From an uncultured Candidatus Saccharibacteria bacterium (GTDB taxonomy: Bacteria > Patescibacteriota > Andersenbacteria > UBA10190): a stretch of 64,000 nt of DNA. Both the position numbers and the translations under genes were made by a program. The DNA lies in assembly GCA_964610055.1 (NCBI GenBank), contig CAZSUC010000001.1:588977-652976 (forward strand), written 5' to 3'. Shown here in pieces: positions 19,689 to 44,324 of this stretch (the stretch's first letter is position 1; each line of letters opens with the position of its first letter). A model generated the notes under the pieces. That model made no database searches. It was not told where the DNA came from and worked only from the letters and a program-made list of their open reading frames with translations.

Positions 19689-21095
19689 ATGCCTATACAT
19701 TACAAAGCCAACTGGCAATCTATTATTGCACTGATAGGAGCTACAGTAATTCTCCTTACCCTCACCCTCCAATATCCCTTCTCTGTTACTTTCCCTATAG
19801 GCGGAGATGCACCCTCATACATCACTTATACTAAAATGCTCCTTGGCGTTTTCCATAACCCCAACGATGCCTGGTACGCCCTTACTCACACCTGGTACCC
19901 ACTTGCATACTTTTACTTCGCCCCCTTCGCTTTAATTCCAATTAGCTGGCCCATGCGCTTCGTCTGGTGGGCCGCTACAGGATACGTCATTTCTGGAGCC
20001 GCTCTCGGCTGGCTAATTTACCGGATCGGGGGTTGGAAATATGCTGCCGCCAGTATCGCTCTCTGGGCACTCGTCCCGATTGCTGGCATGCGCCACTTTG
20101 AAGATGCCACCATCGCTCAACTCTGGAGCTATACCCCCTTCTTTTTATTTATTGAACGCTTTTACTCTAAAAAAACCATTGTCACCCTGATCCTACTGGT
20201 TATTACCTGCCTGAGCCACCCCATCACCGCCATCGTACTTCTCACCGGCATGTTTGCTTTTATTCCTGCTGGCATATATTCACATAAAGGATTCCAGCCC
20301 GCCGACAAACGCTTCACTATTATTATGGTTACAGCGGCATCGATCATGGCTCTCGCTGCATTGGCGGTTGTTATTAGTCGCGCTTCCGTATTTAACGTCG
20401 TTGTCGCTCTTCCTCAACCATCCGGAATATTTGATTACATGCGACCTAACTTCATTCCAATCGCTATGCTTGCTCCAATCGGGCTAATCTTCCTCCTAGA
20501 ACACTTGCGCAACAAACCTCACGCCTTACTTATGATGACCTGTATTATATTATCCAGTACATATTTTGGCCTTAACGGAATTTTCGGACACCACGTTTGG
20601 GAAGTTAGGTTCTACGCCTTCTTCGTCATGAGCCTCATTATATTAGCTTCCTTTTCCCTGCCTCATTTAGTCCACCATATATTTCCCTCTCACATTCTCG
20701 CTAGCGCATTTTTAGTTTGTTTTTTTAGCGTTATGGCCATCACTAATTGGTCCCAGGCTGCCTATGTTTATAACTTTTACGAATCGTCTAGTCGGTACGG
20801 ACGTCTGCACTCTGATGAAATTTCCGGTATCGAGTGGATGATTAACAACCTACCAAGCCACTCCAAAGTATATGTCACCAATACTACTCGACACTCGGAA
20901 TGGATCCAGGCGCTGACTGACTTCCAGGTTCAGTTCGTTGATGAGAATTCACTGACTAACGGTCTAATCCCTATCACAGAAGGCGCACAATATCATGCCT
21001 TCTTTACACATACTGAAAGTTTTCCAAAGGATCTTATCCAATACCCTATGATCTACCAGAACCAGGGGTTTAAAGTAATCCAACTCAATTCATGA
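19689..21095 (+). CDS. Polytopic membrane protein (possible glycan polymerase/GT-C-like)
   Basis: 468 aa from ATG 19689, with many hydrophobic helices. No named motif was found. Confidence 0.6.
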   Translation: MPIHYKANWQSIIALIGATVILLTLTLQYPFSVTFPIGGDAPSYITYTKMLLGVFHNPNDAWYALTHTWYPLAYFYFAPFALIPISWPMRFVWWAATGYVISGAALGWLIYRIGGWKYAAASIALWALVPIAGMRHFEDATIAQLWSYTPFFLFIERFYSKKTIVTLILLVITCLSHPITAIVLLTGMFAFIPAGIYSHKGFQPADKRFTIIMVTAASIMALAALAVVISRASVFNVVVALPQPSGIFDYMRPNFIPIAMLAPIGLIFLLEHLRNKPHALLMMTCIILSSTYFGLNGIFGHHVWEVRFYAFFVMSLIILASFSLPHLVHHIFPSHILASAFLVCFFSVMAITNWSQAAYVYNFYESSSRYGRLHSDEISGIEWMINNLPSHSKVYVTNTTRHSEWIQALTDFQVQFVDENSLTNGLIPITEGAQYHAFFTHTESFPKDLIQYPMIYQNQGFKVIQLNS

Positions 21096-21406
21096 TTATC
21101 AGTCACAAAACATCCAGCTGGATTATTATGGTTAGCTTGCTTATCTACTTTTTTGCAGACCACCACATCGTTTTTTACATTTGGCTCACCGGAACAACAA
21201 TCCTTTTATTAACCTCTATCCCTGTCCGTACTTTTCTGCTGTTTACTGTCCTCGCATTTTTTGCTATTGCCGCCTTAAACATCTCCATCCCATGGCCAAA
21301 CGCCTGGCCGGATCTCATTAAATTATCTGCTTCAGCTCTTACTTGGGTAGCTATTACTACTACCACTTCCGCCTGTATCCTTTCATACCACCGAAGTGCG
21401 CCTTAA
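21092..21406 (+). CDS. Small membrane protein
   Basis: 104 aa with about 3 hydrophobic helices and an ATGA overlap with the upstream gene. Confidence 0.45.
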   Translation: MIISHKTSSWIIMVSLLIYFFADHHIVFYIWLTGTTILLLTSIPVRTFLLFTVLAFFAIAALNISIPWPNAWPDLIKLSASALTWVAITTTTSACILSYHRSAP

Positions 21407-22093
21407 AATTTTCCGAAAGAAATAAATCAAGTCATCTAACACAACACCGGGAAAAGCAATTATAAACCAAACCCCCAACAATCCCATCAAGGCATCCCTT
21501 ATTCCTAATAGTGGTGCTTCTTTATATCCTGACCACATTTTTTCCCATAACATACTCCTACCTACCAACTTCATCTCCACATCACCCTCCTTGTTATTCT
21601 CCGCAATCCAATAATGTCCGTCAGGATAATTGGGGTCAGCTTTTTCCACAAACACCCGCGGCGCCCGCGCCTGGTTTTCATGTGCAATCTTAGAACCGTT
21701 AAATACCACTTCTAAATCCCCGTCCAGCCAAACCGCAGGATTAATCTCAAATACTTCCTCCCAAGTCCGCCCCGCTTCACCTTGCCGCCGCCAACGCTGT
21801 ACTAATTTCCCGTTCCGACGCAAATCAATCTGCAACTCTTCAGTTTCTTCCGGCCAATAGATTGGCACAACTATTTTTGTCGCTTCAAACGGCTCTTCCA
21901 CCCTTAAAGTCTGAGTAACTATAAATTGCGCAAAAACAGGCATACCATTTTCTGGCACATCATGAGCAGCTAAAATCCGAATAGCTGCAAACTCTTGATA
22001 TTGACCCAACCAATTCCATCCCCACCACCCAAACACCAACAATAATATTCCGCTCGCACTCATTCGAACTATTTTGATCCAGCTTTGCGACAT
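21383..22093 (-). CDS. Membrane-anchored protein with extracytoplasmic beta-rich domain
   Basis: 236 aa with N- and C-terminal hydrophobic helices. It lies directly downstream of the 22103-23503 gene. Confidence 0.6.
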   Translation of the reverse strand: MSQSWIKIVRMSASGILLLVFGWWGWNWLGQYQEFAAIRILAAHDVPENGMPVFAQFIVTQTLRVEEPFEATKIVVPIYWPEETEELQIDLRRNGKLVQRWRRQGEAGRTWEEVFEINPAVWLDGDLEVVFNGSKIAHENQARAPRVFVEKADPNYPDGHYWIAENNKEGDVEMKLVGRSMLWEKMWSGYKEAPLLGIRDALMGLLGVWFIIAFPGVVLDDLIYFFRKILRRTSVV

Positions 22094-22102
22094 AAAACTG
22101 AC

Positions 22103-23503
22103 TCAAACGTTCTTCCGCCGCCGCAAACCGATCGCCAACCACGCCCACGGCATCAACCAAACAAAATACTGATGCAATAAAGTAGGGAAAAACCCGATCA
22201 ATATCGTAAAGATTGCCAGCCCGGCTTCATATATATTTATCTTCCGCCACCAAAGCGCTGCGTACACGAGCGCCATCATTCCTCCCACCACCACCATCTT
22301 CCCCACGCTCCCGAAGTCCAACACAACCGGTAATGCCGGCAAATCATAATCCATCCGCGCCTCCCGCGTCACTGAATATGTCAGCCCCTTCACTACCGCC
22401 GCCGGATTATCCCAGACAAACGGCAAAATACTTACAACCGGTATAGCACTAACCAGCACCGCTGCTAACAACGTGATTTTCACTTTTTTCCCCGGCCGTG
22501 TCCGCTGCCAAACACTAATCAAAAATACCGGCACAAACACCACTGCCACCTGCTTCACCGAAAGCGATACTCCTAAAATCAACGCTGCCCATAACGCATG
22601 CTGCTCGACCAACGTCACTGCCCCTATCAAAGACACAACACCTAAGAAATCCGTATGCGCTATTCGTGCCACATACAAAGACCAGCGGTTAAACAGCCAA
22701 AATAAAGCGGCCAGAACGCCCAAAACCGGCTGCTTCCGCCGCCAAAGCCAAGCCCCTAATAATCCGGCTCCCCCAAACCAAACTATCGTCACAATTACCC
22801 GCCAGACTTCAATCCAGTCTTCATATTCAGTTAAGCCTAGCTGCTGCATTCCGGCCGACATCCAATACACCAAAGGAAAATGAGCCGGATAACCAATACA
22901 AGTATTGTCTAAAGCACATTTATACGGATTTTCTCCTGATTTAATTTGCCCACCCCGTTGCCAATAATATCCAATATCATCTCCCGCCGTATCATGACTC
23001 CAAAAAGAATTTAGAACTGCTGCCAACGCTCCCATTCTCGTCTGAAACACTATGGCTATATTAACGTCCTCATTATCTTCAGCCATATCTTGATTTCCAG
23101 GCTTCCATTTCACCTCATTCCCGTAATTTACAAACCTCAACCTCGCGATTGATGTAGTTTTTGCCTTAATTTTTGCAAATTCAAACACCCATTTCACCTC
23201 TGCCTTTTTACCAATATCTCTTTTTCCACTTACCTCTCGAATCACATTTCCTTGTTCGTCCTGAACTTGCATTATTATTTCACCCGGATTAAGCGCTTTT
23301 TGTTCCTGTGTAATAATTTCCGAAAGTCCGCTCATTGGTACCTGAATTACTTGCTCTAGCTGTTCGTTCGTCTCTAGCACCACAGGATCGATTTCGCCTT
23401 CCTGAGGCTCAATCACACGCACCGGAACTGTAACTGGCCATATTGCCAATATAGTTAGCAACAATACCACTATTCCTAATTGTATATATAAAAACTTTTT
23501 CAT
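22103..23503 (-). CDS. Polytopic membrane protein, GT-C-like (DUF2029/GT87-like guess)
   Basis: 466 aa. An N-terminal anchor and a soluble segment are followed by about 8 TM helices. The family call is tentative. Confidence 0.65.
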   Translation of the reverse strand: MKKFLYIQLGIVVLLLTILAIWPVTVPVRVIEPQEGEIDPVVLETNEQLEQVIQVPMSGLSEIITQEQKALNPGEIIMQVQDEQGNVIREVSGKRDIGKKAEVKWVFEFAKIKAKTTSIARLRFVNYGNEVKWKPGNQDMAEDNEDVNIAIVFQTRMGALAAVLNSFWSHDTAGDDIGYYWQRGGQIKSGENPYKCALDNTCIGYPAHFPLVYWMSAGMQQLGLTEYEDWIEVWRVIVTIVWFGGAGLLGAWLWRRKQPVLGVLAALFWLFNRWSLYVARIAHTDFLGVVSLIGAVTLVEQHALWAALILGVSLSVKQVAVVFVPVFLISVWQRTRPGKKVKITLLAAVLVSAIPVVSILPFVWDNPAAVVKGLTYSVTREARMDYDLPALPVVLDFGSVGKMVVVGGMMALVYAALWWRKINIYEAGLAIFTILIGFFPTLLHQYFVWLMPWAWLAIGLRRRKNV

Positions 23504-23568: not shown

Positions 23569-26346
23569 ATGTTACAACGACTCTGGCAAACAGAACGCTC
23601 CGGAATTATATGGATCGGACTTACTTGGTTTTTTTTCTTCGTCCGTATTCTCAGTGGTACTCATGTTTATTTTCTCGATGACCTCAAATTATTTTATTAC
23701 CCCATTGAAACCATCTACGCTGAGTTTCAACATTCTGGCCACCTACCTCTTTGGAGTAACGTTTTTGGTTTCGGACACCCCTTACTTGCCTGGGGACAAC
23801 TTGGCTTCTTCACTCCCTTACATTTTCTGCTTCGCGCACTTTATATCCCCGCCCTGAATCTTCTTCAAATTTCACTGGTCACTTATTTTGCCATTGGTCT
23901 CTCGGGACTATACACCTTTCTCCGCCAGTGTCGCCTCTCACCGCTTGCCTCAGCTTTTGGTAGTATCGTCTTTATCTTTGCCGGATTCAATATTGGTCAC
24001 TTAAATCATGTGAATTTTTACGTTGGCACCATGGTTCTACCATGGCTCTTAGTTGCCATTCTACGTTTCACTAAACAACCCTCTTTGCGTTTATCAAGCA
24101 TTGTTGCTTTACTTGGCGCCACTATCGCTGTCAGTGCTCAGCCCCAAATCGTGGCTTATTGTTTTGTTATCGCTGGCATTACAGCCATCATTTTTTTCGT
24201 TCATCATTTTTTTTCTCTGACACGCTCACATCGTCTCCATTATCTTATTCATTTTCTCGTTTTGGGCATTATTGCCACTATCCTAGCCTTGGGTATTTCT
24301 TCAATTACCCTGCTTCCTCTTTTTGAGTTCTTACCATATACAGAACGTAGCGCCGGACTCAGCACCACTGAGCTTCTCGACTTCAGCTTTCCTCCCTACC
24401 ATTTTATTACTTTCCTTGCTCCTTATTTCTTCGGAGACCATGCCAATTATTGGGGCCCTAAAGGCTTTCAAGAACTTGCTGCCTATACTGGCATGATTCC
24501 GCTTTTACTTGCTGCTAGTTCGCTTTTCTCTTGGCGCACGCATCGCCCTCTTCGTATCCTTGGTCTCGCTTTAATCTGCTTTAGTCTCCCGTTACTCCTC
24601 GGTTCATATTCCCCGTTATATCGTTACCTTGTCTCACATGAGATTATTTCTGCCCTTTCTATTCCTGGACGATTCGTTTTACTTCTTGATTTTGGTCTCG
24701 CTCTTCTGGCTGCCATCGGTTTATCTGATTTCTTAAACCAAAAACTAAAACTATCACGTTATTTTGGGGCCATTCTCATTACCATTGCCATTTTTCTGCC
24801 TTTTGCCTATACCGCCACACTTACCCCTCAAATTCGCCTCCGTCTTTATCAGCTAATCAGTCAACTCAACTGGTCTTTTCTCCTAGCTGGTCTCGGATTT
24901 ATTGCCACTCTCTGGGCTTGGCTCTGGCCATTTCGACTCCAACGTCGTCATTATGCTAGCATCCTTCTAGGTATCACAGCTTTTACTCTTATTGCTTACG
25001 GCTGGAGTTATAATCCCATTACTTCACGCGCTCAAGTTCAATCTACCTCTCCTTTACTAACTAACACTACTCTCATTACTCCCGCTCGAATTTTCAGTCA
25101 GCACCAGCTTCTCATTTCTCAAGCTGCCACTAAATTGCATACTACTGAGGATCTTTCACCTTCTTTCTCAATCAAACAACCAATCTTCACCTGGCCAGAG
25201 TCTGGTTGTTTTTCCATTGCCATGCACGCGAAACCAGAAATTAACTCTCACATTACCGTCACTATATCCAGTGATCTTGATAGTCGTGAAATCCTCGCCT
25301 CTCAATCAATTGCCAGTAGTCTTATCACTTCAAACGACAATCAAATTATCTGTTTTCCTTCTTTTACTCCGACAGCCGATCAAAACCTCATCTTGTCTTT
25401 CACGAGCTTAACTGATTCTGGCGTTAATCTATATTACCAATCCGAACCAGCCACCAGCTCAACATATCTAATCAGAGTTGCGAACCCAACTCTCAGTCAG
25501 CTTCAAGCATCAGCAAAACCAGGTCAAATTATGTATCAAACATACGATTTTGACGACACCGAATCGATCACTTTAAATCGTCATCTTAACGCCGCTGCTG
25601 GTTTAAGTAGTGCAAATTGGATTGGATCGCTCTCAATTCTATCGTATCGAGAATTTGTTGATACTTTCTTCGGTAATGATCAGGAAAACGTCGATGGTGA
25701 CGGTCATCATGTTTTAGCAAAAAATCGTCATATTTTTAACATGGCTAGCGTCAATTATTTTGCTCAAATCTTGAATCCCAACACTCAGGATATTATGCCA
25801 TCAGCTGATTTCTCAGAAGAATCTGTGTATCAATTCGGCGACAAAACCGCTAAGCTTTACTTTAACCCCGAAGCTTTTCCTAAAGCCTATTTAGTACGCA
25901 ATGCCGAATATGTACCCCCTGCCGACGAAGCTCGCACAATTATGCTTGATCCCGAATTCAACCCTTCTCAACTTGTTCTTATTAGCGGAACAAGCGAACC
26001 TAAACATTTACCTGCGTATAGCTCCGACCCAATCAATGGCACAGTTAATACAACCGTTTACGAGCCAACTCGTATTGACATTGACGTCACTACTGATACC
26101 GAAGCTTGGCTTGTAGTCACTGATGCTAGTATCCCTTTATGGCAAACTTATATTGATGGCGAACTTGCCCCATACTATGTTGCTAACACCGTGTTCAAAA
26201 CTGCTCGTGTTCCTGCCGGAAATCACACCGTCAGCTTTCGCTATATATCGCCAGCTACTCAATTAGCTTCCAAACTATGTCTTTCTGCTTTAGCTATTAG
26301 TATATTGATATTAATTATTCCTTTTAAGCGCCTTTCTCATAAATGA
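23569..26346 (+). CDS. YfhO-family polytopic membrane protein (putative glycosyltransferase)
   Basis: 925 aa. N-terminal HLPLWSNVFGFGHPLLAWGQLGFFTP and C-terminal ...WQTYIDGELAPYYVANTVFKTARVPAGNHTVSFRYISP plus a terminal TM are typical of the YfhO architecture. Confidence 0.75.
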   Translation: MLQRLWQTERSGIIWIGLTWFFFFVRILSGTHVYFLDDLKLFYYPIETIYAEFQHSGHLPLWSNVFGFGHPLLAWGQLGFFTPLHFLLRALYIPALNLLQISLVTYFAIGLSGLYTFLRQCRLSPLASAFGSIVFIFAGFNIGHLNHVNFYVGTMVLPWLLVAILRFTKQPSLRLSSIVALLGATIAVSAQPQIVAYCFVIAGITAIIFFVHHFFSLTRSHRLHYLIHFLVLGIIATILALGISSITLLPLFEFLPYTERSAGLSTTELLDFSFPPYHFITFLAPYFFGDHANYWGPKGFQELAAYTGMIPLLLAASSLFSWRTHRPLRILGLALICFSLPLLLGSYSPLYRYLVSHEIISALSIPGRFVLLLDFGLALLAAIGLSDFLNQKLKLSRYFGAILITIAIFLPFAYTATLTPQIRLRLYQLISQLNWSFLLAGLGFIATLWAWLWPFRLQRRHYASILLGITAFTLIAYGWSYNPITSRAQVQSTSPLLTNTTLITPARIFSQHQLLISQAATKLHTTEDLSPSFSIKQPIFTWPESGCFSIAMHAKPEINSHITVTISSDLDSREILASQSIASSLITSNDNQIICFPSFTPTADQNLILSFTSLTDSGVNLYYQSEPATSSTYLIRVANPTLSQLQASAKPGQIMYQTYDFDDTESITLNRHLNAAAGLSSANWIGSLSILSYREFVDTFFGNDQENVDGDGHHVLAKNRHIFNMASVNYFAQILNPNTQDIMPSADFSEESVYQFGDKTAKLYFNPEAFPKAYLVRNAEYVPPADEARTIMLDPEFNPSQLVLISGTSEPKHLPAYSSDPINGTVNTTVYEPTRIDIDVTTDTEAWLVVTDASIPLWQTYIDGELAPYYVANTVFKTARVPAGNHTVSFRYISPATQLASKLCLSALAISILILIIPFKRLSHK

Positions 26347-28313
26347 AAATTTCACTCGTCTTTGTTTCTCTTTGGGGGCTTATTTCACTTTGTCTTTCAC
26401 TTGGCTTATTTTATCTCGCTAATCAAGCTCCTAATACTCTTAAGGCCTTACCTGTAATTGACGCACCTACCTGGCTAACTTATGGTCTCTGGCAAGGACT
26501 TCTGGTCGGATCCGCTTTCTTATGTACCGTTTTGCTGATTAATCGTTTACCCCGCCATCGTTGGTTAGCTGCCAGTATCGCACTCGTCATTTTTACTCCT
26601 CTAGCCATTGGTGGTTTTTGGTTTTCTACCTCCAATCTTGGCATTTCTGACTGGGATTATTATTTTTCTTATCACGAAGTTTTACGTCAAGGTATTCTCG
26701 TTCATCACACTTTTCCTTTTTGGAATCCATATATTTGCGGCGGTACCGCCGGCTTAGGCGATCCCGAATTTCCTGTCTTTACTCCTACATTCTTGTTAGA
26801 GCTCATCTTTGGTATTCCAATCGGATTTCGTCTCGCTATTATGTTTTCAACTGCCATGACCGCTCTTGGCATGCTTATGCTAGGTAAGCGCTTAAAACTT
26901 TCAGTTAATGCTTCTCTACTTGCTGCTTTAGTTGTTGCTTTTGGCAGCGTTAACTTACTAGAAATTGTTGAAGGCCATCCTAACATTTTTTCGGCCATGT
27001 GGGTACCATGGATATTTTGGGCCTGGCTTGCGGAGTATAAATCTTTTCGTCTTAAACACTCCATCCTAACCGGCACCTTCTTAGCTCTCACTTTCTTCCA
27101 GGGCGGAATTTATATGCTGATGTACGTCACAATTACTCTGGGTCTCTTAATTATCTTCCTTCCAAAACATAAACGCTCATTTCTTATTACCGCTACTGCT
27201 GGTTTATGGGCTCTGGGCTTCGCTGCCATTAAACTTATCCCTGTCTTATTTTGGTTAAACCAATTTCAAGACCAAGTATATGCCAGCTCAGCTAACACAT
27301 TATTATCTTTACATAAAATTCTTCTCGGCCGTTTTCTTCATGGAGAAACTAATGCCAATCTCATTTCAAGCCAAGGTAGTGGATGGCATGAATATGGCGC
27401 TTATATTGGCCCGATCGCCTTCGCCCTCGCCTTTGTTCGTCTCTCTCGTCTAAAAACACACCGTCTCACTCAACTTTTAATTGCTTTTGCTTTAATTTTC
27501 CTTCTCTTCTCAGCTTTAGGACCAACTCTAAAGCCCTTCTTCAATCAAGTCTCTTATTTCCCTCGCTCTAATATCTCCCGCATTATCCTATTTGCAGTTT
27601 TACCTTTAGCCTTATTAGCCGGACAAGGTCTAGATCAATTTTCCAAACGCTTTAAATATCTTGGCGCCGCTATCGTCGGGTTAGCCGCTATTGATCTCTT
27701 TTCTCTGGCTTACCCGTTATCATTACAAGCTTTTACTCTCGTGCCTGCTGTACCCACTCCAGAAACCGCTGCTTATCCCTTAGAACGCACTGTCGGCACT
27801 TTCATGGTTCGTTCTAACGGAGTTGACTACACTCGTGCTTACACTGCTATCAAATCTGGCTATGGCACCGAAACCTATTGCTCAGTTCTTACTCCAACTA
27901 ATTCTACTACCGCTATAGAAGAAGGCGAATCAGATCAAGACCGCGCCTACGTCACCTTATCAAATTCAAATGACGGTACAACCCAGCTACTTGATTGGAA
28001 CTATAACCGAGTAGCAGTCAGTGTTAATTCCTCACAACCGACTCAAGTGATCCTTAACAGTAATTATGCCTCTGGTTGGCTCACTAACGGTAAACCAGCC
28101 AAAGAAATTAACAATCGCCTAGGCGCATCTATTCCCAAAGGACACAGTGAAATCATTTTTACTTACCGTTCACCTGGGTTTATAGCCGGCTTAGTTGTTA
28201 CTTTACTTTCGTTAATAGCAGCCCTTACAAGCTATATCTTCTCCACCACAAAATATTTCAACTCTGGACACGCTTCTATCCCTGATAAAGACTCCGTTTT
28301 ACCATCACGATAA
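26343..28313 (+). CDS. YfhO-like polytopic membrane protein
   Basis: 656 aa. It shares the FPFWNPYICGGTAGLGDPEFPVFTP motif with the two other + strand YfhO-like genes. ATGA overlap with the upstream gene. Confidence 0.7.
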   Translation: MKISLVFVSLWGLISLCLSLGLFYLANQAPNTLKALPVIDAPTWLTYGLWQGLLVGSAFLCTVLLINRLPRHRWLAASIALVIFTPLAIGGFWFSTSNLGISDWDYYFSYHEVLRQGILVHHTFPFWNPYICGGTAGLGDPEFPVFTPTFLLELIFGIPIGFRLAIMFSTAMTALGMLMLGKRLKLSVNASLLAALVVAFGSVNLLEIVEGHPNIFSAMWVPWIFWAWLAEYKSFRLKHSILTGTFLALTFFQGGIYMLMYVTITLGLLIIFLPKHKRSFLITATAGLWALGFAAIKLIPVLFWLNQFQDQVYASSANTLLSLHKILLGRFLHGETNANLISSQGSGWHEYGAYIGPIAFALAFVRLSRLKTHRLTQLLIAFALIFLLFSALGPTLKPFFNQVSYFPRSNISRIILFAVLPLALLAGQGLDQFSKRFKYLGAAIVGLAAIDLFSLAYPLSLQAFTLVPAVPTPETAAYPLERTVGTFMVRSNGVDYTRAYTAIKSGYGTETYCSVLTPTNSTTAIEEGESDQDRAYVTLSNSNDGTTQLLDWNYNRVAVSVNSSQPTQVILNSNYASGWLTNGKPAKEINNRLGASIPKGHSEIIFTYRSPGFIAGLVVTLLSLIAALTSYIFSTTKYFNSGHASIPDKDSVLPSR

Positions 28314-29662: not shown

Positions 29663-29664
29663 AG

Positions 29665-34126: not shown

Positions 34127-34141
34127 CCCACCTCCTTACGT

Positions 34142-34169
34142 CCCGTGCCACATCGGCACGGGCTTTTTT
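34142..34169 (+). terminator. Rho-independent terminator
   Basis: CCCGTGCC-acatc-GGCACGGG forms a perfect 8-bp stem, followed by C and T6. Confidence 0.7.
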
Positions 34170-34284
34170 ACAATTTATTCCGTCCCAGTCTCTCATACCG
34201 GTATAAAATTTCTACTTTTGTAGATCGATATAGTATATTAACTTTATCTTTTGTTCCCTTCACTTTTAGTAGGAGGATAAACCG

Positions 34285-34476: not shown

Positions 34477-34509
34477 CCTTTGCGCACCATCACAGTCAGG
34501 AGAATTTTC

Positions 34510-34788: not shown

Positions 34789-34814
34789 CACACCTCCTCC
34801 TTCATCATCCTACT

Positions 34815-34841
34815 CCACCAAGCCAGTCTTGGTGGATTTTT
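34815..34841 (+). terminator. Rho-independent terminator of the small-gene unit
   Basis: CCACCAAG-ccagt-CTTGGTGG forms a perfect 8-bp stem followed by ATTTTT. The U-tract overlaps the stop codon of the convergent ATPase gene. Confidence 0.65.
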
Positions 34842-36135: not shown

Positions 36136-36136
36136 T

Positions 36137-36361
36137 TCAGCTCCTTTCTACCATTGTAAAATAATTAGCCGGAATAGGACGTGGCGGCAATCCCGGTCGC
36201 ATCACCATAACTACTTTTGTTTCCACCTTAGCTTCAGACGTAATCTTCACTGTCCGCCGCCATGCTTCCAAACGGTTTTTAATTACTCTCTGCGTTTCTA
36301 TTGGCAGCCAATGCTTAATTCGCTCATACTCCTCTTCTACTTTGTGTAATTTTGCTATCAT
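36137..36361 (-). CDS. Small hypothetical protein (74 aa)
   Basis: ATG 36361 overlaps the upstream TGA (ATGA), and its own stop lies 1 nt before the next ATG. This translationally coupled position is the main evidence. Confidence 0.55.
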   Translation of the reverse strand: MIAKLHKVEEEYERIKHWLPIETQRVIKNRLEAWRRTVKITSEAKVETKVVMVMRPGLPPRPIPANYFTMVERS

Positions 36362-38043
36362 ATTGTTTCTTTCATCATCCATTGCCCGATCGCTGATTCC
36401 GCCGTTTGTTCTAGCCATCTTTTCAACGGCCTAACCCCGAACCGCGGATCATATTTCTGCTCAATGTGTTGTCTAATCATATTATCCGACATCGACAAAT
36501 TAACTCCCAAATGACTGAATCGTCTTTCAATCTTCTGTAGTTCCAACCGTCCGATCATCACTAAAGTTTCCGGCGCAAACGGAGCAAAAACAGCAATTCC
36601 CTCAAACCGATTCAAAAACTCCCACCGAAAATATTTAGTCAGCAATGGCAACATCCGCCGACTTAACCATTCCGCACTTGTTACATCCTCTCCTGCCTGC
36701 CAATCAGTCACAATTTCACTTATCCCTATATTCGAAGTCGCCACAATCACGGTTTTCCGGAAATCGATTGTTCGTCCTTGCCCATCAGTTAAACGCCCAT
36801 CTTCTAACACTTGTAAAAAAATATCAAACACCGCTTTATCGGCTTTTTCAATTTCATCCAATAAAACTAACGAATATGGCCTTTGTTGTACTGGATTAGT
36901 TAATTGACCACCACTCTCATACCCAACATAACCAGGTGGCGCACCAATTAAACGCTGTACATTATGTGCTTCCTGGTATTCCGACATATCAACCCTTACC
37001 ATCGCCTTATCTCCGCCGTACAATTCTCGCGCCAACACACGCGCCACCTCTGTTTTACCGACTCCGGATGGACCTAAAAACAAAAATGAACCCAATGGTC
37101 GATCCGGATTCTTCAATCCTAACCATGACCTTTCGATTACTTTTGTTACCATATTTACTGCTTGATCCTGACCAATGACCTGCGCTGCTAATCTACCCCC
37201 CAACCCAGCAATGGCCTTCCTATCTCGCGTTTGAACTTTTATTGTCGACATCCCCAACTTATCACTCAAAACCCGCTGCGCATCTTCATATGCCACAATC
37301 CTCCGCCCCTGCACCACCGCCTCCGCTCCAATGTCATCTAAAAACCTAATTGCCCGTTCGGGCATCGCTAAGCTCGCTGGTAACTGACTCGCTAAATCAT
37401 AGATTGCTTCCGGCATATTAGCAGCCATCTTAATATTATGTTTGAATCCAAAATAAGCGGCGCGATCTCTTAAAATTTCCACCACATCTGCTTTTCCTAA
37501 TTCATCTAATCGAATCCATTCGAACTCACGTACATACTTCGGATAATTTTCCTTAAATTTTATTTCTCCTTCTAACGACAACGCTAACACTAATCTATGC
37601 CTCTGTTTCTGCCAAAACTTACTCCACACATCCGCCATCTGCGCTGTATTCATCACATACTCCAACAGCACCTCTGCCTTATCAATCACCAAAATACAGG
37701 CTGGTAGCGCTCCTAGTGCTTCTCCGTAAAGCCGTAATTTCGCGGCCGGATCATGCGCTCGATTCATTTTTTCCTGCCACCATTTCAAATCTAACTCCAG
37801 AATTGGTGTTTGAATTATCCCCTGCAAACTGCCTTTGACCGCCGCCTGCGCCAACCCTCTCAACAACGCTGTTTTGCCTACTCCTTCTCCTCCTGTCACC
37901 ACCACGTTATTCATTTGATCACGCTCAAATACTCGCGCCATCAAACTCAACTCTCGCTCCCGACCTCTCACTGGCCACTGACGAACTTGAGTAGCCTCTC
38001 GCACTAAATCAATTATATGTATTGTTTCTAATCGCTCAGGCAT
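36358..38043 (-). CDS. Clp/Hsp100-family double-AAA+ ATPase, short form (no N-domain, no M-domain, degenerate NBD1)
   Basis: NBD2 is intact: GPSGVGKT, LLDEIEKA, GAPPGYVGYESGGQLT, VIVATSN, FLNRFEGIAVFAPF and GVRPLKRWL. NBD1 keeps Walker A GGEGVGKT, but Walker B reads ILVIDKAE (E replaced by K) and the KYRGEFE-type pore loop is absent. 561 aa. Confidence 0.85.
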   Translation of the reverse strand: MPERLETIHIIDLVREATQVRQWPVRGRERELSLMARVFERDQMNNVVVTGGEGVGKTALLRGLAQAAVKGSLQGIIQTPILELDLKWWQEKMNRAHDPAAKLRLYGEALGALPACILVIDKAEVLLEYVMNTAQMADVWSKFWQKQRHRLVLALSLEGEIKFKENYPKYVREFEWIRLDELGKADVVEILRDRAAYFGFKHNIKMAANMPEAIYDLASQLPASLAMPERAIRFLDDIGAEAVVQGRRIVAYEDAQRVLSDKLGMSTIKVQTRDRKAIAGLGGRLAAQVIGQDQAVNMVTKVIERSWLGLKNPDRPLGSFLFLGPSGVGKTEVARVLARELYGGDKAMVRVDMSEYQEAHNVQRLIGAPPGYVGYESGGQLTNPVQQRPYSLVLLDEIEKADKAVFDIFLQVLEDGRLTDGQGRTIDFRKTVIVATSNIGISEIVTDWQAGEDVTSAEWLSRRMLPLLTKYFRWEFLNRFEGIAVFAPFAPETLVMIGRLELQKIERRFSHLGVNLSMSDNMIRQHIEQKYDPRFGVRPLKRWLEQTAESAIGQWMMKETI

Positions 38044-38044
38044 A

Positions 38045-39895
38045 TTAGACCATCATTGTCCGATTAACAGTTGTGCCACCCGTAATCTGACTGGATCTTA
38101 TCGTTCCTTCCTCTTCATCTTCTGTTCCTATAATTATCCCGCCACGATGACGCGCTTCTGCCGCTAACTCAATCTCTGTCCCTCTTTGCTTAATCTGACC
38201 AACATAATTATCTAAATCTACTCGCCAACCCGGCTTCTCTCTTTCATTTCTCCAATTTTCTCTTTCCGCCTCTGCTCTCCATTCATATCCAACCGGACCA
38301 TCTGTCACTTGCTCTAAACTATCCGGCTTCGTTTTCGCCTCATAAAAACGATACCTAACTGCATCCCCATCTCGCTCCACTACCGTTACATCCAACACTT
38401 CGCCTTTTACCGTACGCTCTCCCGAAAAATACTGCTGTTCTCTGTTTACTGCGCCTCTAATCACTTTTTCTAGCTCTCCTCGCTCTTCCACCGGCCACAA
38501 ATCCATCACACTCTTTTCTATTTGCTCCGGCATCAACGTTAAAGCGACTTTCTCTTCCATATCTAACTCAACATCAATACCCTGAATTTCCTCTCTTCTT
38601 ACCTCCGCCTTATAAACCGTTTCTACCTTCGGGTACTCTTTCTTTTCCCCAACCTTCACATCTACATTCACATCTACATCTATATTCTCTACATTATTTT
38701 CTCTTCCCTTTTCTAAAATCACTGGTCTTTCAGCTATTTTTTTCTCCTCCGTAATCGCAACTTCAACTCTTTCCTTAACTCTCGTAACGCTTTGCTCCGA
38801 TAAAACCTGGTCGGCTTTCACATCCACCGCTTTCGGCACTAGTCCCGGAAACATCTCCTGTAAACTCACTTCTACTTTCCTAGATTCATTTTTCTGTCCT
38901 AAATCAGTTTGCACTACTTCTGGCATTGAAGCAGCTTCTCTTTCCCCCGCATTTACATACTTTATCTCTATGGCTTCACTCGGCGTATTTTCTATCACCC
39001 GTACCTCTCCTGTCTTCGTCTCACCAGGTTCCTCTTGCTTTAACAACTCCTTACGCAACTCCTCATGATTCCAAACTTCTTCTAGCTGCGGCTCTTCAAC
39101 CTGCCTCTGCTCCACAAACACATCAGAATTAATCGTATTTTCAGATGCTTGTTCTTCTAGTTCTTCTCTTTGATCATCTACTTCCACTCTTTCACCAACC
39201 ATATCCATCGCATTTATATAATTTATCTCAATGCCTTCACTCGACGTATTTTCTATCACTTGCACCTCTTCTTCTCTCACCTCATTGCTTTGCTGTTCTT
39301 GTACCACTACCACTTCTTCTCTAACAAGCTCTTCACTTATCTCATCAACCATACTTTCTGCTTGCGCTTCAATCTCTACTTGTTCTACTTGCGCTTCATC
39401 TTCACTGCCTATCCACTCGTCGCTTTCTTCATTCAAATTAACCGGTACTTCACGAAATTGCACTAACATATATTCTGTTTCTCGTTCTCCCCACTCATTC
39501 ACTTCGTCTTTGACCACCACTGCACAACTTTTAAACTCATGATAAGCCACATATCCACTTTTCGCGCCACATAATGTTTCAAATTGCCCTTCTTCATCCA
39601 TTCCTTCACTACTAATCTCCTGATCATTCCAAAATACCCGTCTCTTACCAGTCGCGTCTTCCCTCACCACGCATTTATATGTCTGCGCCATTTCTAGTCT
39701 TTGCCCTGTCCCTTGCTCTAAATCAACTCGAGCTGATTCTAATCTCATTGTCATTCGCTCATGTTCTTCTGTCTGGCGTTCCTTTTCCGATGCTAATTCT
39801 TCTGCTTGAACCTGTACCTCAGATTCAATCTCTTCAACATCCAACATTTCCTCTAGGCTTTCTTCGGTTTCCGCTATGTTTATACTTTCAGGCAT
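38045..39895 (-). CDS. Hyper-acidic repeat-containing protein (616 aa), function unknown
   Basis: ATG 39895 lies 8 nt after AGGAG. The long central region is Glu/Val/Gln-rich with an internal duplication (EVQVIENTSSEGIEINYINA and EVRVIENTPSEAIEIKYVNA). There is no signal peptide or TM segment. Its stop lies 1 nt before the Clp-like gene's start. Confidence 0.75.
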   Translation of the reverse strand: MPESINIAETEESLEEMLDVEEIESEVQVQAEELASEKERQTEEHERMTMRLESARVDLEQGTGQRLEMAQTYKCVVREDATGKRRVFWNDQEISSEGMDEEGQFETLCGAKSGYVAYHEFKSCAVVVKDEVNEWGERETEYMLVQFREVPVNLNEESDEWIGSEDEAQVEQVEIEAQAESMVDEISEELVREEVVVVQEQQSNEVREEEVQVIENTSSEGIEINYINAMDMVGERVEVDDQREELEEQASENTINSDVFVEQRQVEEPQLEEVWNHEELRKELLKQEEPGETKTGEVRVIENTPSEAIEIKYVNAGEREAASMPEVVQTDLGQKNESRKVEVSLQEMFPGLVPKAVDVKADQVLSEQSVTRVKERVEVAITEEKKIAERPVILEKGRENNVENIDVDVNVDVKVGEKKEYPKVETVYKAEVRREEIQGIDVELDMEEKVALTLMPEQIEKSVMDLWPVEERGELEKVIRGAVNREQQYFSGERTVKGEVLDVTVVERDGDAVRYRFYEAKTKPDSLEQVTDGPVGYEWRAEAERENWRNEREKPGWRVDLDNYVGQIKQRGTEIELAAEARHRGGIIIGTEDEEEGTIRSSQITGGTTVNRTMMV

Positions 39896-40097
39896 ACAAA
39901 AAACTCCTACATGCACAACACGCATGAGGAGAAATCACTAAAAATCCTTATGCGCGTAGGCTCAACAAAGGATTCAGGCACTCTGACTTATGGCTTTTAG
40001 CCCATCACAGTTGCGGCATACCAGCGCCGGATTCTCACCGGCTTTCCCTGATCACACTTTTCAGTGCGCGTGGTGCGAACCACGCCAATCCTCTTTA
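39896..40097 (-). promoter_or_regulatory. Cobalamin riboswitch-like 5' leader (aptamer ~39966-40096, expression platform 39896-39965)
   Basis: The minus-strand RNA reads AUCAGGGAAAGCCGGUGAGAAUCCGGCGCUGGUAUGCCGCAACUGUGA (40005-40050) plus the B12-box-like GCCAUAAGUCAGAGUGCCUG (39975-39994). These are closed by P1 AAGAGGAUU/AAUCCUUU. Downstream, hairpin 39904-39931 (CUCCUCAUGC-guguugu-GCAUGUAGGAG) sequesters the SD and is followed by U6 and then the ATG. Confidence 0.8.
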
Positions 40098-40167: not shown

Positions 40168-41676
40168 TTATTTAGCGTATATCCAAACATAAGGCACGTC
40201 GTGCACCTTTATAACCTCCACCGGCACGACATCTTTCATTGCCGCTAACGCCTGACTCGCCAAAGTGTCTTCTCCGCGACCACCCATGTTTCTATAGGTC
40301 ACAATATAATCAACATGTTCATTCTCCCGAGCCGCTAAACTAACTACCTCGCCCCTAAAATATGTTTGCAACACTTGCGGATACCAAGATGCAACCGTTA
40401 ATTGTTCCGCCTCTGTCTGCGCGTTTAACCAAGCTGCCGCCGCTTCTAACCCCTCACCCCATCCTTGCTGACTTAGTGGCCGTATCTCCGGTAATAAAGA
40501 ATTATTATACGCAATCAAATAACTATCTCGCCAATTAGCCCATGTCCAAACGGATAGAAATACCACCACGCCTATCGCAAACCCTTGCCATGTTTTTTTT
40601 CGTCTCGCCAAAGTTATCTTTGCCGTTACCCATCCCGTCAACACCGGCCCCACAACCAACGCTGGCAATGCATACCGATCCGCTTTTTTCGCCGCCCAAG
40701 TCATAATAACCAAAAAGCCAATCGCATAAACATACATCCAAACCATTTCTTGGCTGTGCTTTTGTTTCCGCACTATTACTATTAATGCTGCTACCCAGCC
40801 AAATAACACCAGCGGCGTACTCCGACCCAATGCGGTTCGCATATAAAAAGTCGCGGGCTGAATCGCATCCGTCCCAGCATCTAACTCAACATGCTCCCAA
40901 GTAACTGCTGTCCCAATATCACGCGTAAATGAACGACTCATATCTGCTTTCACCCACGCCGCTGGCCATGCCACCCAAAACACCAGTCCTGCTACTCCAA
41001 TCACCGTGCCCAAAGTTCGCAACATTATATTTATTTTTCCTGACTTGCCCCATAACTTCCACACCACCCACCCCATCATCATTGGCACTAGCCATAACGC
41101 TAAAATTAATTTCGTTGCCGCTGCTAGCCCAAACCAAATACCTGCTCCAACTAGCCAACGCCATTTTTGCTTTTGCCACCAGACCATCCACGCCAACCAA
41201 CTATTCAACATGAACAATGCCAATAATCCATCCAAATGCACAATCTGCGTCGCTCCTGCTAAATACGGATCTAACGCCAAAAATATTCCAGCTAACCAAC
41301 CGACTGGCGCCCCTCCTAAGATCGTCAACATAAATGCCGCTATCCCAATCATCCCAGCCGCCGCTAAACTCACGGGCAGAACAGCTGCCTTACGAAAATG
41401 TTGTAAATTACCTGGCTGAACTGTTACTCCTAAACGTGTTTCTTGCACCACTTCCCCTGCCCCTGCTAGCCACATTAAAGGCGCCCCCGGATGAGTTGTC
41501 ACAAATGTCGACGCTGGATCCATGGCTCGAATTGCCTGCCAATATTGAGCGCTGCGTAACATCCACGCCTCTTCATCCACTGTCATATATTGCCCTAACC
41601 CCGGCCACCGCGCCAATAACGCTAAAACTCCGATACTAACTGGTATTATTCCTGCTTTCGCTTTAATCCAATTCAC
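40168..41676 (-). CDS. GT-C glycosyltransferase (ArnT/PMT-type), paralog of 29665-31620
   Basis: 502 aa and polytopic, with extended similarity to the first ~500 aa of the 651-aa protein. Confidence 0.75.
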   Translation of the reverse strand: MNWIKAKAGIIPVSIGVLALLARWPGLGQYMTVDEEAWMLRSAQYWQAIRAMDPASTFVTTHPGAPLMWLAGAGEVVQETRLGVTVQPGNLQHFRKAAVLPVSLAAAGMIGIAAFMLTILGGAPVGWLAGIFLALDPYLAGATQIVHLDGLLALFMLNSWLAWMVWWQKQKWRWLVGAGIWFGLAAATKLILALWLVPMMMGWVVWKLWGKSGKINIMLRTLGTVIGVAGLVFWVAWPAAWVKADMSRSFTRDIGTAVTWEHVELDAGTDAIQPATFYMRTALGRSTPLVLFGWVAALIVIVRKQKHSQEMVWMYVYAIGFLVIMTWAAKKADRYALPALVVGPVLTGWVTAKITLARRKKTWQGFAIGVVVFLSVWTWANWRDSYLIAYNNSLLPEIRPLSQQGWGEGLEAAAAWLNAQTEAEQLTVASWYPQVLQTYFRGEVVSLAARENEHVDYIVTYRNMGGRGEDTLASQALAAMKDVVPVEVIKVHDVPYVWIYAK

Positions 41677-44324
41677 ACTGCACTCGCTTTAATTCGATGC
41701 ATGAACACCAGCGTGTTTGATCCATTCTCTACTTCATGAACTGTTTCAAAATCAGTTTCCATCCCTGCCTCAATCTCGGAATACTCCATCAAAAATGAAA
41801 ACCCAGTTTGTTTTTCTAGTAACACCCATTCCGCCTCACGCCAAGCCTGAACCATCTCTTCGGCGGAAGGCAAAAACACATTCAGTCTTTCTGGGTTCTT
41901 TCGTGTAAATTCATAGGCATACCAACGCGGATGAGCAATATCTAACGACACATGATGACCAGATAAATATGGTACTGCCGCTGCTCCCGTAAAAATCGGT
42001 TTATCTGATGGAATATTTTCCTGCGCCCATTCTGCCGCCTCACGCAAAGAATCTTGCTGAAAAGTTCCAGTGTGCTCAAACGTTGCCGTAATATAATTTG
42101 ATAAATAAACTGCCCACATAATCACTAGTATACTTATCACCGCCAATGGGCGGCGTACCATTTCTCCTTTACCTACCACAAACAAACGTCTCCACAACCA
42201 ATAAGCTCCTACCGCCGCCAATATCGTCAGAGGTGGCAAAAATTCAATAATGTAATTCGCATGAAACTTAATCCAATTCCAGTAAAAGAAGGCTAAGCCT
42301 AAAAACCACGCCAACAAGACCAATGCACTCGCTAGCATCTGTCCCGCCGATTGTTCTCCCGGTGCCACTTTAATTGACTGTTTAATTTCAAATTGAGCTT
42401 GTGCTCCTGAAACTACATTCATCGGTATATTCACCCCTGCATCCGGCTGCGTACTAGCTTTAACTTGAGATGACGCCACCCATCCTTCTTCATTACTACG
42501 CGGCCATACAGTTGCAATCAGTAAAACACTCATCATACCCCACCATAACCCTCGCATTCCACCCATTGATAAAAACGGTTCTCCTTCATATTCAAAGAAA
42601 AATCCATGCGCCCACCACCACCCTAACCATGCCAATAACCAGCCTATTTTTGGCAGCACATGATCGACAATTACAATAGTGATCTTGTCCGACTTATCAC
42701 TGACCCACTTTCGCGCTATCACCCGTAACCATCTTTCCCACATCATTCCAACTCCCACCAGCGCCAAAATTATTAGCGGCAATGATTCTCGGAAAAACGG
42801 CGTCATGCCTCGAATTGAATATTCGCGCACTTGTTCCGCCTCTGCCGGATCAATTGCGGTTTGCCCATCTTCCGCTGAATTAAAACCACTCACTTCCCAC
42901 AAGCCTTGTGTACCATACTGACCATATGCCCACCCTAACAACGCCGAAATTACTAACAAAAATCCCGCCCCAATCAAAACTAAACGCTGGAATTTATTGC
43001 GCCATCCTCGCGACTCAATCCAGACTAATAATAACGGCACAATCCCTAACGCTAGAATACTCTTACGCGAAGCAACACCTAACCCCAATAAAAGACCACC
43101 TATTAACAAGCGATATCCTAATTTCCGGCCTCCCAGATGACCCCGCAACGCCGTCCATATCACCGCGATTCCACTAATCCCAAATAACATCGCCACTGGC
43201 TGAGTGTGCACATACACTGTACTCACTGCTGCCGATCCCAACATCCCCCACATTACCGCTGCCAATAATCCTGTTCGTTTGTTATGTGCTTCTCGTCCAA
43301 TAAAATACATCGGAATGATTGTCAGCACTCCAGCCATAATTGATCCCATGCGTCCCGCTAAAATTGTCGGTCCCATTATTAACTGCCATAATGCCACCCA
43401 TAACAACATAATCGGCGCCTTCACATAACCATCCCCTCCGGCTAAGTGTCCGCGCAATAATGTTTGCGCATCATACAAATAATTACCCTCATCATTAGTC
43501 ACCGGCATTTCTACGGCATATCTGATACGCCATAAAGTCGCCAATATCATGACTAAAGCAATAATCGTTCCCACTACTACTCGATTTAATTCTTTTTCCT
43601 GAGCTTGCCCGCTCAAAACTACTATTGCTCCTACAACCACCGCAGCCGCCAACGCTAAAATCATCCAGTTATAATACGTTCCTTCCCGTGTATCCCAAGT
43701 TCCCACTACCCACCGCGCCTGATTCCCAACAGTGGTAATAATAGCTTCTCGCAACGTCACATCATGATGAGCTATAAACGCCACATCCACCGTTGGCTTT
43801 CCTGACCGCGCAATTACCTCCGCCCCTATCTGCCCTTCGCTGTTCCGCACTAAAAATGCTGACCCTAAGTGATAAGGATCTTGCGTGTTCAAATCAACAG
43901 TCACTGCATTTCCCACCACTGACGCCGGCGAAGTAATCGCGAAGAAATAAGTTTTTCCTTTGCTATTCGCAATCGGATCAAACTCAAACCGATAAAATTG
44001 ATTATCTCCTAGCTCCTGCGGCTCAGCTATGACAGTCCGCAAATTTTCATCACTTGTATAGGACTCTCGTAAATAGAAATAAACCGGCGCCGTGTTGTCC
44101 CTCCCCGAATACGTTGCAAACATTACGCTTACTGCCGACAAGTCATCTGCATCCGCCACAAAAGTCTGTCCTACTAACGCATCGCCCGTTAATTCACCTG
44201 CGTTAGTTGTATATTCCTTAATTTCCGTGTCATTTTGCTTAACCTTAATAAAATTCGCTGACACTGCTGCAGCCGCTAAAACAACTACCACAATTAAAAA
44301 CCAAATTTTTGTTGATGATCGCAT
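41673..44324 (-). CDS. Large GT-C glycosyltransferase with N-terminal anchored soluble module
   Basis: 883 aa. A signal-anchor is followed by a module (GELTGDALVGQTF...YRFEFDPI...FFAITSP...GNAVTV), then many TM helices with an ArnT/PMT-like pattern (NDEGNYLYDAQ). Confidence 0.75.
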   Translation of the reverse strand: MRSSTKIWFLIVVVVLAAAAVSANFIKVKQNDTEIKEYTTNAGELTGDALVGQTFVADADDLSAVSVMFATYSGRDNTAPVYFYLRESYTSDENLRTVIAEPQELGDNQFYRFEFDPIANSKGKTYFFAITSPASVVGNAVTVDLNTQDPYHLGSAFLVRNSEGQIGAEVIARSGKPTVDVAFIAHHDVTLREAIITTVGNQARWVVGTWDTREGTYYNWMILALAAAVVVGAIVVLSGQAQEKELNRVVVGTIIALVMILATLWRIRYAVEMPVTNDEGNYLYDAQTLLRGHLAGGDGYVKAPIMLLWVALWQLIMGPTILAGRMGSIMAGVLTIIPMYFIGREAHNKRTGLLAAVMWGMLGSAAVSTVYVHTQPVAMLFGISGIAVIWTALRGHLGGRKLGYRLLIGGLLLGLGVASRKSILALGIVPLLLVWIESRGWRNKFQRLVLIGAGFLLVISALLGWAYGQYGTQGLWEVSGFNSAEDGQTAIDPAEAEQVREYSIRGMTPFFRESLPLIILALVGVGMMWERWLRVIARKWVSDKSDKITIVIVDHVLPKIGWLLAWLGWWWAHGFFFEYEGEPFLSMGGMRGLWWGMMSVLLIATVWPRSNEEGWVASSQVKASTQPDAGVNIPMNVVSGAQAQFEIKQSIKVAPGEQSAGQMLASALVLLAWFLGLAFFYWNWIKFHANYIIEFLPPLTILAAVGAYWLWRRLFVVGKGEMVRRPLAVISILVIMWAVYLSNYITATFEHTGTFQQDSLREAAEWAQENIPSDKPIFTGAAAVPYLSGHHVSLDIAHPRWYAYEFTRKNPERLNVFLPSAEEMVQAWREAEWVLLEKQTGFSFLMEYSEIEAGMETDFETVHEVENGSNTLVFMHRIKASAV

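Follow-up and report, generated by a model that had tools for sequence, protein, structure and literature searches.

Gram-positive wall polymers are decorated by systems that combine a glycosyltransferase (GT) of the GT-A type for C55-polyprenyl-phosphate sugars, a flippase and a GT-C enzyme of the YfhO or PMT_2 type (reviewed in PMC8035078). Here we describe a stretch of 64,000 nucleotides (positions 588,977 to 652,976 of contig CAZSUC010000001.1; hereafter the window, meaning this whole stretch) from an uncultured member of the Patescibacteria, the group also called the candidate phyla radiation (CPR), in which nine GT-C genes lie within 25 kb. The CsbB/GtcA/YfhO, GtlA/GtlB, GacI-L and Csd systems are like this array in that a membrane glycosyltransferase of family 2 (GT2) for polyprenyl-phosphate sugar and YfhO- and PMT_2-type GT-C enzymes working outside the membrane occur together in wall-glycan clusters. 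The whole B. subtilis genome, however, contains three GT-A/GT-C pairs (PMC8035078), whereas the window alone holds nine GT-C genes and one evident GT2. No GtrA-type flippase was found among the open reading frames (ORFs) scanned in the window.

The streptococcal Pgf system (PgfS, PgfM1, PgfM2) resembles the window in having a PgfS-like GT2 and YfhO-type GT-C enzymes, but all the window scores fall well short of the equivalog cut-offs, the operon is built differently and the window revealed no target adhesin. The presence of many GT-C enzymes in series recalls mycobacterial wall assembly. Compared with the mycobacterial pathways to arabinogalactan, lipoarabinomannan and phosphatidylinositol mannosides (Emb, Aft, PimE), the window has no Emb- or Aft-family Pfam match and no UbiA gene, and the likeness is one of fold only. 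The oligosaccharyltransferases (OSTs) STT3, AglB and PglB share fold and architecture with one of the nine proteins, termed A below, which has neither their WWDYG motif nor a match to Pfam STT3. The kinds of enzyme involved and the logic of the pathway are already known, and relatives of the window proteins are already labelled GT39 or GT87 in public records. What is new is the finding of so dense and conserved an array in a reduced genome, its recurrent strand arrangement and the family of protein A with its OST-like fold; our literature searches returned no paper on GT-C arrays or OST-like enzymes in Patescibacteria.

We propose, with a probability of roughly 0.7, that the window encodes a lineage-conserved set of nine GT-C enzymes (C, D and G; E, F, H and I; B; A) that would assemble or decorate an envelope glycoconjugate outside the membrane from polyprenyl-phosphate sugars, and whose strand orientation is inherited. 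All nine proteins are assigned to the GT-C superfamily, in which they represent four families. They are labelled A to I in coordinate order:

19689 to 21095, + strand: A, 468 aa, predicted STT3/AglB/PglB-like fold
22103 to 23503, - strand: B, 466 aa, ALG3/PIG-M/ALG6/PimE (GT87-like) class
23569 to 26346, + strand: C, 925 aa, YfhO-like, first gene of a C-D operon
26343 to 28313, + strand: D, 656 aa, YfhO-like
28232 to 29662, - strand: E, 476 aa, PMT_2-like
29665 to 31620, - strand: F, 651 aa, PMT/PMT_2-like
31660 to 33930, + strand: G, 756 aa, YfhO family
40168 to 41676, - strand: H, 502 aa, PMT_2-like, last gene of an RmlA-GT2-GT4-epimerase-I-H operon
41673 to 44324, - strand: I, 883 aa, PMT_2-like

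Our ORF check recovered nine long ORFs at exactly the coordinates given in a preliminary description of this DNA, and a simple hydropathy scan finds 6 to 12 membrane segments in each product, in agreement with the nine large polytopic genes in 25 kb that had been reported there. The division of these genes into two families proves too coarse, as we find four (YfhO-like, PMT_2/PMT-like, ALG3/PimE-like and STT3-like). Protein A, which had been set aside as a further polytopic protein, is indeed polytopic but is itself a GT-C protein according to its model and fold search. The assignment to GT-C, rather than to transporters or other families, follows from Pfam for six proteins, from fold searches on good models for A and B, and from homology to G for C and D. 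The outcome that would have overturned the first description, a majority of proteins outside the GT-C fold, was not found. No NCBIfam model scored above its cut-off for any of the nine, and the ArnT equivalog model had no match among them at E ≤ 0.1.

Three of the PMT-like proteins (CAZy GT39/GT83-like) pass the Pfam PMT_2 (PF13231) cut-off of 26.1 bits, E with 38.5, H with 29.9 and I with 31.3 bits, and the fourth, F, passes that of Pfam PMT (PF02366; 32.9 bits, cut-off 22.7). A profile of the F family, compared with solved structures, gave a single match, a protein O-mannosyltransferase (PMT; 9i5k, E=4e-4). F has more than 100 orthologs at 40-54% identity, several of them named GT39 family proteins of Candidatus Andersenbacteria. 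Public relatives are designated here L002 to L010 (loci) and P0133 (a protein). H is a short paralog of F, with 44% identity over 505 aa, and its nearest relative is P0133, from another sample, at 55% identity. Orthologs of E are present in L005 to L010 (43-49% identity), and orthologs of I occupy the same operon position in L005 and in L007 to L010 (47-49%). Residues 508-651 at the C-terminus of F match residues 35-166 at the N-terminus of I with 41% identity (BLAST, E=1e-25); H lacks this domain. A hidden Markov model (HMM) built from the F segment detects I (E=2e-34), a C-type ortholog (1e-6) and, at 0.004, C of the window, and detects neither B nor the 236-aa protein encoded between A and B. 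From their sequences, F and I, and more weakly C, are thus predicted to share an extracytoplasmic accessory domain, distinct from the beta-sandwich of B. Directly after the F ortholog, two of the loci encode a HAD-UbiA fusion (L005, 11917 to 13338; L009, 7369 to 8802). Such a fusion recalls polyprenyl-phosphate phosphoribosyl transfer, the source of mycobacterial arabinose donors.

Among the YfhO-like proteins, G passes the Pfam YfhO (PF09586) cut-off of 28.5 bits with 61 bits, D stays below it with 19 bits over its C-terminal region only, and C has no Pfam match. In BLAST comparisons among the nine, C and G share 28% identity over 397 aa (E=5e-24) and match again at the C-terminus, and D matches C with E=3e-7 and G with E=2e-7. 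The residues D32, E41, P54-x-W56, G63 and F75-x-P77 (G numbering) are invariant in C, D, G and one ortholog of 44% identity, which bears out the shared motif that had been noticed in these + strand genes. That the motif might be an artefact of composition was considered and ruled out: the residues are invariant in true homologs, and the BLAST matches are significant with composition correction. By Pfam family, mutual homology and published predictions (PMC8035078), C, D and G are probably YfhO-like GT-C enzymes. C has an ortholog in L010 (35% identity), D in L006, L008, L009 and L010 (48-53%) and G in L002, L006 and L007 (44-46%). A profile-profile comparison of A with the YfhO-like alignment gave nothing. 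Three of the loci encode proteins of 760-778 aa on the YfhO strand (L005, 14388 to 16670; L008, 9122 to 11458; L010, 13780 to 16107). These resemble none of the nine, save for a weak N-terminal match to the accessory domain of F and I (E 2e-6 to 5e-3), and may be a further polytopic family in such arrays.

B matches Pfam ALG3 with 26.4 bits against a cut-off of 23.6, and a fold search on its structure model supports the same ALG3/PIG-M/PimE-type class (GT58/GT50/GT87-like); a sequence search of the PDB gave only weak matches. Its N-terminal residues 23-158 are modelled as a beta-sandwich with a carbohydrate-binding-module fold. Six relatives of B were found, one of them annotated as a Candidatus Andersenbacteria GT87 family protein.

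The start of A is taken as the ATG at 19689 and not as the TTG at 19626 of the mechanical ORF: the exact 468-aa product is held in a public protein collection, and relatives align from the N-terminus that this ATG gives. A has no Pfam or NCBIfam family match, Pfam STT3 included, and a sequence search of the PDB with it returned nothing. A word-based search found 19 relatives; with a profile run against 1.84 billion cluster representatives the number was 220, and 97 of these had E ≤ 1e-30. The AlphaFold2 model built from the 19-sequence alignment has a mean predicted local distance difference test (pLDDT) score of 88.3 and a predicted template modelling (pTM) score of 0.89, and the top 14 Foldseek hits to it are all STT3, AglB or PglB (E 2.5e-6 to 2.8e-5, TM-scores 0.52-0.59). 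Like that of B, the model has 10 or more membrane helices; these are followed by a C-terminal globular domain with an AglB-like fold, which is the architecture of an OST. A G-G-D40 motif in the first loop is invariant across the family. WWDYG is absent from A and from the family consensus, and YESPSxYAR stands instead after the last helix, with NRHSEW further on. Given the Foldseek hits on the one side, and the lack of WWDYG and of a Pfam STT3 match on the other, A appears to be STT3-like in fold and not a member of the STT3 family.

Two small genes lie between A and B:

21092 to 21406, + strand: small membrane protein of 104 aa with about three helices (ORF and hydropathy; no Pfam match)
21383 to 22093, - strand: 236-aa protein, downstream of B and convergent with A (no Pfam match)

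The first is translationally coupled to A through an ATGA overlap. The second has a C-terminal membrane helix and possibly an N-terminal helix below the hydropathy threshold, separated by a non-hydrophobic stretch of about 165 aa. Homologs of the 236-aa protein (30-33% identity) lie in the same convergent position by the A homologs of L003 and L004, where an ORF of 102-113 aa also follows A; the sequence similarity of these ORFs to the 104-aa protein is marginal. A, a small membrane protein and the convergent 236-aa protein therefore recur together in both loci, and in L004 the A homolog adjoins the same heptose/rhamnose/LepA block as in the window.

In solved GT-C enzymes, acidic residues of the first loop serve in catalysis, and the family alignments keep such residues unchanged throughout: D40 for A, D176 for B, D32 and E41 for C/D/G and D32-E33 for F/H. 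Reading the remaining two sequences, we find GDEG in E (D29-E30, after the first membrane helix) and NDEG in I, each directly after a membrane helix. These invariant residues argue against the alternative that some members of the set are not sugar transferases at all, but polymerases, ligases, accessory subunits of the Agl23 kind or catalytically dead scaffolds. For that alternative speak the lack of WWDYG in A, the fact that distant relatives of A touch PTPS_related and DUF6541, and weak matches of E and F to the Agl23 "flippase activity-associated" family; the latter, at 27-28 bits, are far below the cut-off of 126. We consider it decidedly improbable.

Several of the closest named homologs of the window proteins come from Candidatus Andersenbacteria (of the Patescibacteria and Parcubacteria groups); the names of these homologs suggest a Patescibacterium close to that lineage as the source. 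The proteins are also found in the Logan assembly of run SRR8925805, and our scan of a genome collection yielded one relative. In L006, from Andersenbacteria (GCA_030698495.1), eight GT-C-like genes lie within 16.4 kb. The gene order RmlA-GT2-GT4-epimerase-I-(F/H) is kept in L005 and L010; L007 keeps it too, save that F lies a gene further along, and L009, at a contig end, keeps it from GT4 onward. In L005 the products of RmlA, GT2, GT4 and epimerase are 65-72% identical to those of the window, in the same order and on the same strand.

A local tandem expansion, for which a phylogeny had been suggested as a check, is contradicted by these relationships. A recent local origin of the nine genes by tandem duplication might be read from the 44% identity of the paralogs F and H, from the domain shared by F and I, and from the homology of C, D and G, which are adjacent or nearby. 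F and H are, however, the closest pair in the window, and proteins of other genomes match F at 53-54% identity, while the F/H tree and BLAST place H nearer to P0133. G, D, E and I show 25-28% or no detectable identity to paralogs in the window, and BLAST finds no paralog of A or B there. Each window GT-C protein with detectable relatives has some ortholog closer than its nearest paralog in the window, as seen for F, H, G, D, E and I; the paralogs are old. Pairwise BLAST, the F/H tree and ortholog mapping together rule out a recent expansion, to which we give next to no chance. Judged by these comparisons, the array is an ancestral, lineage-conserved repertoire and not a local expansion.

The segregation of the two sets by strand, as first described, is true: A, C, D and G are all on the + strand and B, E, F, H and I all on the - strand. 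Counted by transcription unit (C-D, G, B, E-F and I-H, two + of five), such a split has a chance of about 0.1. In addition, the G ortholog of L002 and every gene next to it point the same way; one of these neighbours encodes a polytopic 673-aa protein (which has no Pfam match and no similarity to I by BLAST). On these two grounds we had thought the segregation private to this window, an idea that was dropped after six more loci were mapped. In this survey, the nine proteins were mapped onto six loci centred on F orthologs; the loci are orthologous, and the counts that follow are not independent. PMT_2-like genes lie on the G-rich strand in 22 of 24 cases in the six relatives (26 of 28 with the window), and YfhO-like genes on the C-rich strand in 8 of 9 (11 of 12 with the window). 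There are three exceptions. L006 has two of them, a D-like gene that lies on the strand of the PMT genes and a PMT-like gene that lies on that of the YfhO genes; L005 has the third, again a PMT-like gene on the YfhO strand. Gene order varies between the loci, and two pairings recur: F and G head-to-head, 39 bp apart in the window and 23 and 5 bp apart elsewhere, and D and E tail-to-tail, overlapping at their 3' ends by 82 bp in the window (28232 to 28313) and by 9 bp in L009, and 40-190 bp apart in L005 and L006. B and C are head-to-head with a 65-bp gap, and the start of D overlaps the end of C by 4 bp.

The window has a GC skew of about -0.30 in every 2-kb bin, regardless of gene direction, and + strand genes have a third-position (GC3) skew of -0.53, against +0.60 for those on the - strand. 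The + strand GT-C genes, at -0.46 to -0.55, have the same GC3 skew as other + strand genes, which indicates long residence on that strand. Presumably the G-rich strand is the leading strand of replication. The closest relatives, L006 and L007, have an extreme skew too (+0.28 and +0.35), and more distant ones have 0.06-0.14. The bias extends to the proteins: compared with those of the - strand, + strand proteins are richer in His (about two-fold) and in Phe, Ser and Pro (1.5-1.8-fold), with less than half the Glu, Met and Val. Strand-specific composition thus makes the + and - sets look more different than their ancestry requires, and may be the reason that Pfam scores are poorer for all four + strand GT-C genes than for the five on the - strand.

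In bacteria, the direction of a gene with respect to replication is as a rule conserved, and the strand pattern is best explained, most economically, as inherited operon orientation. Placement on opposite strands could instead be functional, with expression coupled or opposed through divergent promoters and convergent overlapping transcripts, or with YfhO genes selected to lie head-on to replication. The recurrence of the pattern in six other genomes despite differing gene order favours this, as do the tight F|G gaps and the D/E overlaps; yet short gaps are normal in compact genomes, the recurrence is among orthologous blocks, and within the window such a split has a chance of about 0.1. The three exceptions, the co-directional G ortholog of L002, the orthology of the loci and the GC3 skew lead us to a non-functional reading, and a functional role for the placement seems quite unlikely.

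Nearly the whole of the window is devoted to glycan synthesis according to our Pfam survey. The operon that ends in I and H spans 48953 to 40168 and begins with four further genes:

48069 to 48953, - strand: RmlA (Pfam)
47115 to 48053, - strand: polyprenyl-phosphate GT2, ArnC/PgfS-like (Pfam)
45970 to 47109, - strand: glycosyltransferase of family 4 (GT4; Pfam)
44334 to 45353, - strand: NAD-dependent sugar epimerase/dehydratase (Pfam)

The GT2 matches ArnC (E=4e-46) and PgfS (E=3e-41) along its whole length, with neither score reaching the equivalog cut-off, and carries membrane helices at its C-terminus; it is the membrane GT-A protein expected of a system of the multi-component transmembrane glycosylation type. 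Within this otherwise tight operon, a gap of 616 bp (45354 to 45969) separates GT4 from the epimerase, whereas the two abut or overlap in L005, L009 and L010. The sole ORF in the gap encodes 166 aa from a TTG start, and its reality is doubtful.

The other genes of the window for which we have assignments are as follows:

304 to 9490: cytoplasmic GT2 and GT4 transferases and methyltransferases (Pfam)
9436 to 16444: nonulosonic-acid pathway (Pfam)
17766 to 19655, - strand: MsbA/PglK-like ATP-binding cassette (ABC) exporter (Pfam ABC_membrane and ABC_tran), head-to-head with A across a 33-bp gap
within 34840 to 39925, between G and H: TraG/VirD4-like coupling ATPase, 431 aa
within 34840 to 39925: ClpB-like AAA protein, 561 aa, without the usual N-terminal half
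within 34840 to 39925: very acidic 626-aa protein with no family match
within 49078 to 59519, - strand: heptose-nucleotide genes, namely epimerase, cytidylyltransferase-like protein, HAD phosphatase, PfkB kinase and SIS isomerase
within 49078 to 59519, - strand: RmlD, dehydratase, RmlC and LepA (Pfam)
57897 to 59519, - strand: MurJ (Pfam)

The exporter scores 435 bits with NCBIfam MsbA (cut-off 602) and 243 bits with PglK, and its pairing with A is not kept in L003 or L004; from its sequence it is a candidate flippase for a lipid-linked glycan. MurJ is also above cut-off on Polysacc_synt_3 and Polysacc_synt (Wzx-type), far below its own MurJ score. The GT2, the MsbA-like exporter and MurJ, all named as supporting functions when the DNA was first described, are confirmed, and with several sugar-nucleotide pathways beside them the large capacity for lipid-linked, extracytoplasmic glycosylation claimed at that time is a fair reading.

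The nonulosonic-acid pathway, of pseudaminic or legionaminic type, looks complete, with a PseB-like dehydratase, a DegT aminotransferase (PseC-like), a cytidylyltransferase (CMP-transferase), GNAT, ATP-grasp and HAD proteins and NeuB, which is unexpected in so small a genome. A 403-aa protein (16551 to 17762) with a faint glycosyltransferase match lies between these genes and the exporter, and a DUF4012 protein of 647 aa (59523 to 61466) adjoins MurJ. A polytopic ORF at 62253 to 63644, which has no Pfam match, was taken as a transporter on reading its sequence and was left out of the GT-C count. The three genes at 34840 to 39925, which are unrelated to the array, interrupt it between G and H, and the block looks inserted, as the orthologs of I, G and F are directly adjacent in L007. 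It is preceded by 909 bp without a long ORF (33931 to 34839), unusual for an otherwise compact region. Two similar small ORFs lie there (33923 to 34126 and 34285 to 34476), both starting ...ERNR(R/Q)LT.AL.PL, and the region contains a direct repeat of 52 nt with 73% identity. No Rfam family, tRNA or rRNA was found in the window, and the two non-coding gaps (33931 to 34839 and 45354 to 45969) likewise had no Rfam match.

From this context we infer a pathway of the following kind. Cytoplasmic enzymes would make nucleotide sugars, namely dTDP-rhamnose, a heptose nucleotide and a cytidine monophosphate (CMP)-nonulosonate. The membrane GT2 would load a sugar onto polyprenyl phosphate, and a lipid-linked oligosaccharide may in addition be assembled by GT2 and GT4 enzymes. 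The lipid-linked sugars would be flipped across the membrane, possibly by the MsbA-like ABC exporter. At the outer face, the nine GT-C enzymes would pass sugars singly to an envelope glycoconjugate, with A perhaps acting en bloc instead. A bolder version holds that this lineage makes most of its surface glycoconjugate outside the membrane, that A is a hitherto undescribed, very compact (about 470 aa) and minimal STT3/AglB-like OST or ligase in a nine-enzyme outer-face assembly line, that it moves a flipped lipid-linked glycan en bloc onto protein or wall with the aid of its 104-aa and 236-aa neighbours, and that the opposite strands of the YfhO and PMT genes reflect regulated pairing beyond ancestry; this we regard as speculative and rather unlikely.

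Several observations weigh against the pathway as proposed. No GtrA-type flippase was found in the window among the ORFs of at least 110 aa taken as genes and two smaller ORFs, and no initiating phosphoglycosyltransferase among the window ORFs scanned; moreover, one clear polyprenyl-phosphate GT2 in the window would have to serve nine GT-C enzymes. A PDB sequence search with G or with a C/D/G profile found no solved YfhO structure, and the profile-profile link between YfhO-like and PMT-like families is modest (70% probability over 86 columns). Finally, PMT-type enzymes and the streptococcal YfhO-type PgfM1 glycosylate proteins, and a protein acceptor is therefore possible.

For the main acceptor we favour a cell-wall or surface glycopolymer, on the grounds of the predicted carbohydrate-binding-module fold of the B beta-sandwich and of the accessory domain of F and I (weakly of C). 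A serious rival, which we nevertheless hold to be the less probable, is that the array serves mainly protein O-glycosylation, in which Ser/Thr residues of secreted or surface proteins (pilins or S-layer proteins, for instance) would receive sugars from polyprenyl phosphate, as with actinobacterial Pmt or streptococcal Pgf. F passes Pfam PMT, and the only solved match of its profile is a protein O-mannosyltransferase; the GT2 resembles PgfS, and G has a weak PgfM1 match. Pgf glycosylates Ser/Thr-rich regions of membrane-associated proteins (PMC12041528). The NCBIfam matches to PgfS and PgfM1 are, however, far below their equivalog cut-offs, the window holds no gene for a candidate Ser/Thr-rich acceptor, the carbohydrate-binding-module fold of B points to a glycan acceptor, and Gram-positive PMT_2- and YfhO-type enzymes mostly decorate wall polymers (PMC8035078).

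The strand-dependent composition described above calls for caution in annotation, as it shifts protein composition up to two-fold. The ortholog sets of A to I and the RmlA-GT2-GT4-epimerase-I-F/H operon offer concrete targets for expression and assay, and family A may serve glycoengineering, if it is active. The cells of Patescibacteria, whose genomes are very small, grow attached to other microbes; surface chemistry is therefore probably central to their biology, though to our knowledge it has hardly been studied. The nine GT-C genes sum to about 17.3 kb, roughly 2.5% of the 698,565-bp contig, and lie in a glycan region of at least 64 kb, a large investment for a small genome (the contig being about 0.7 Mb).

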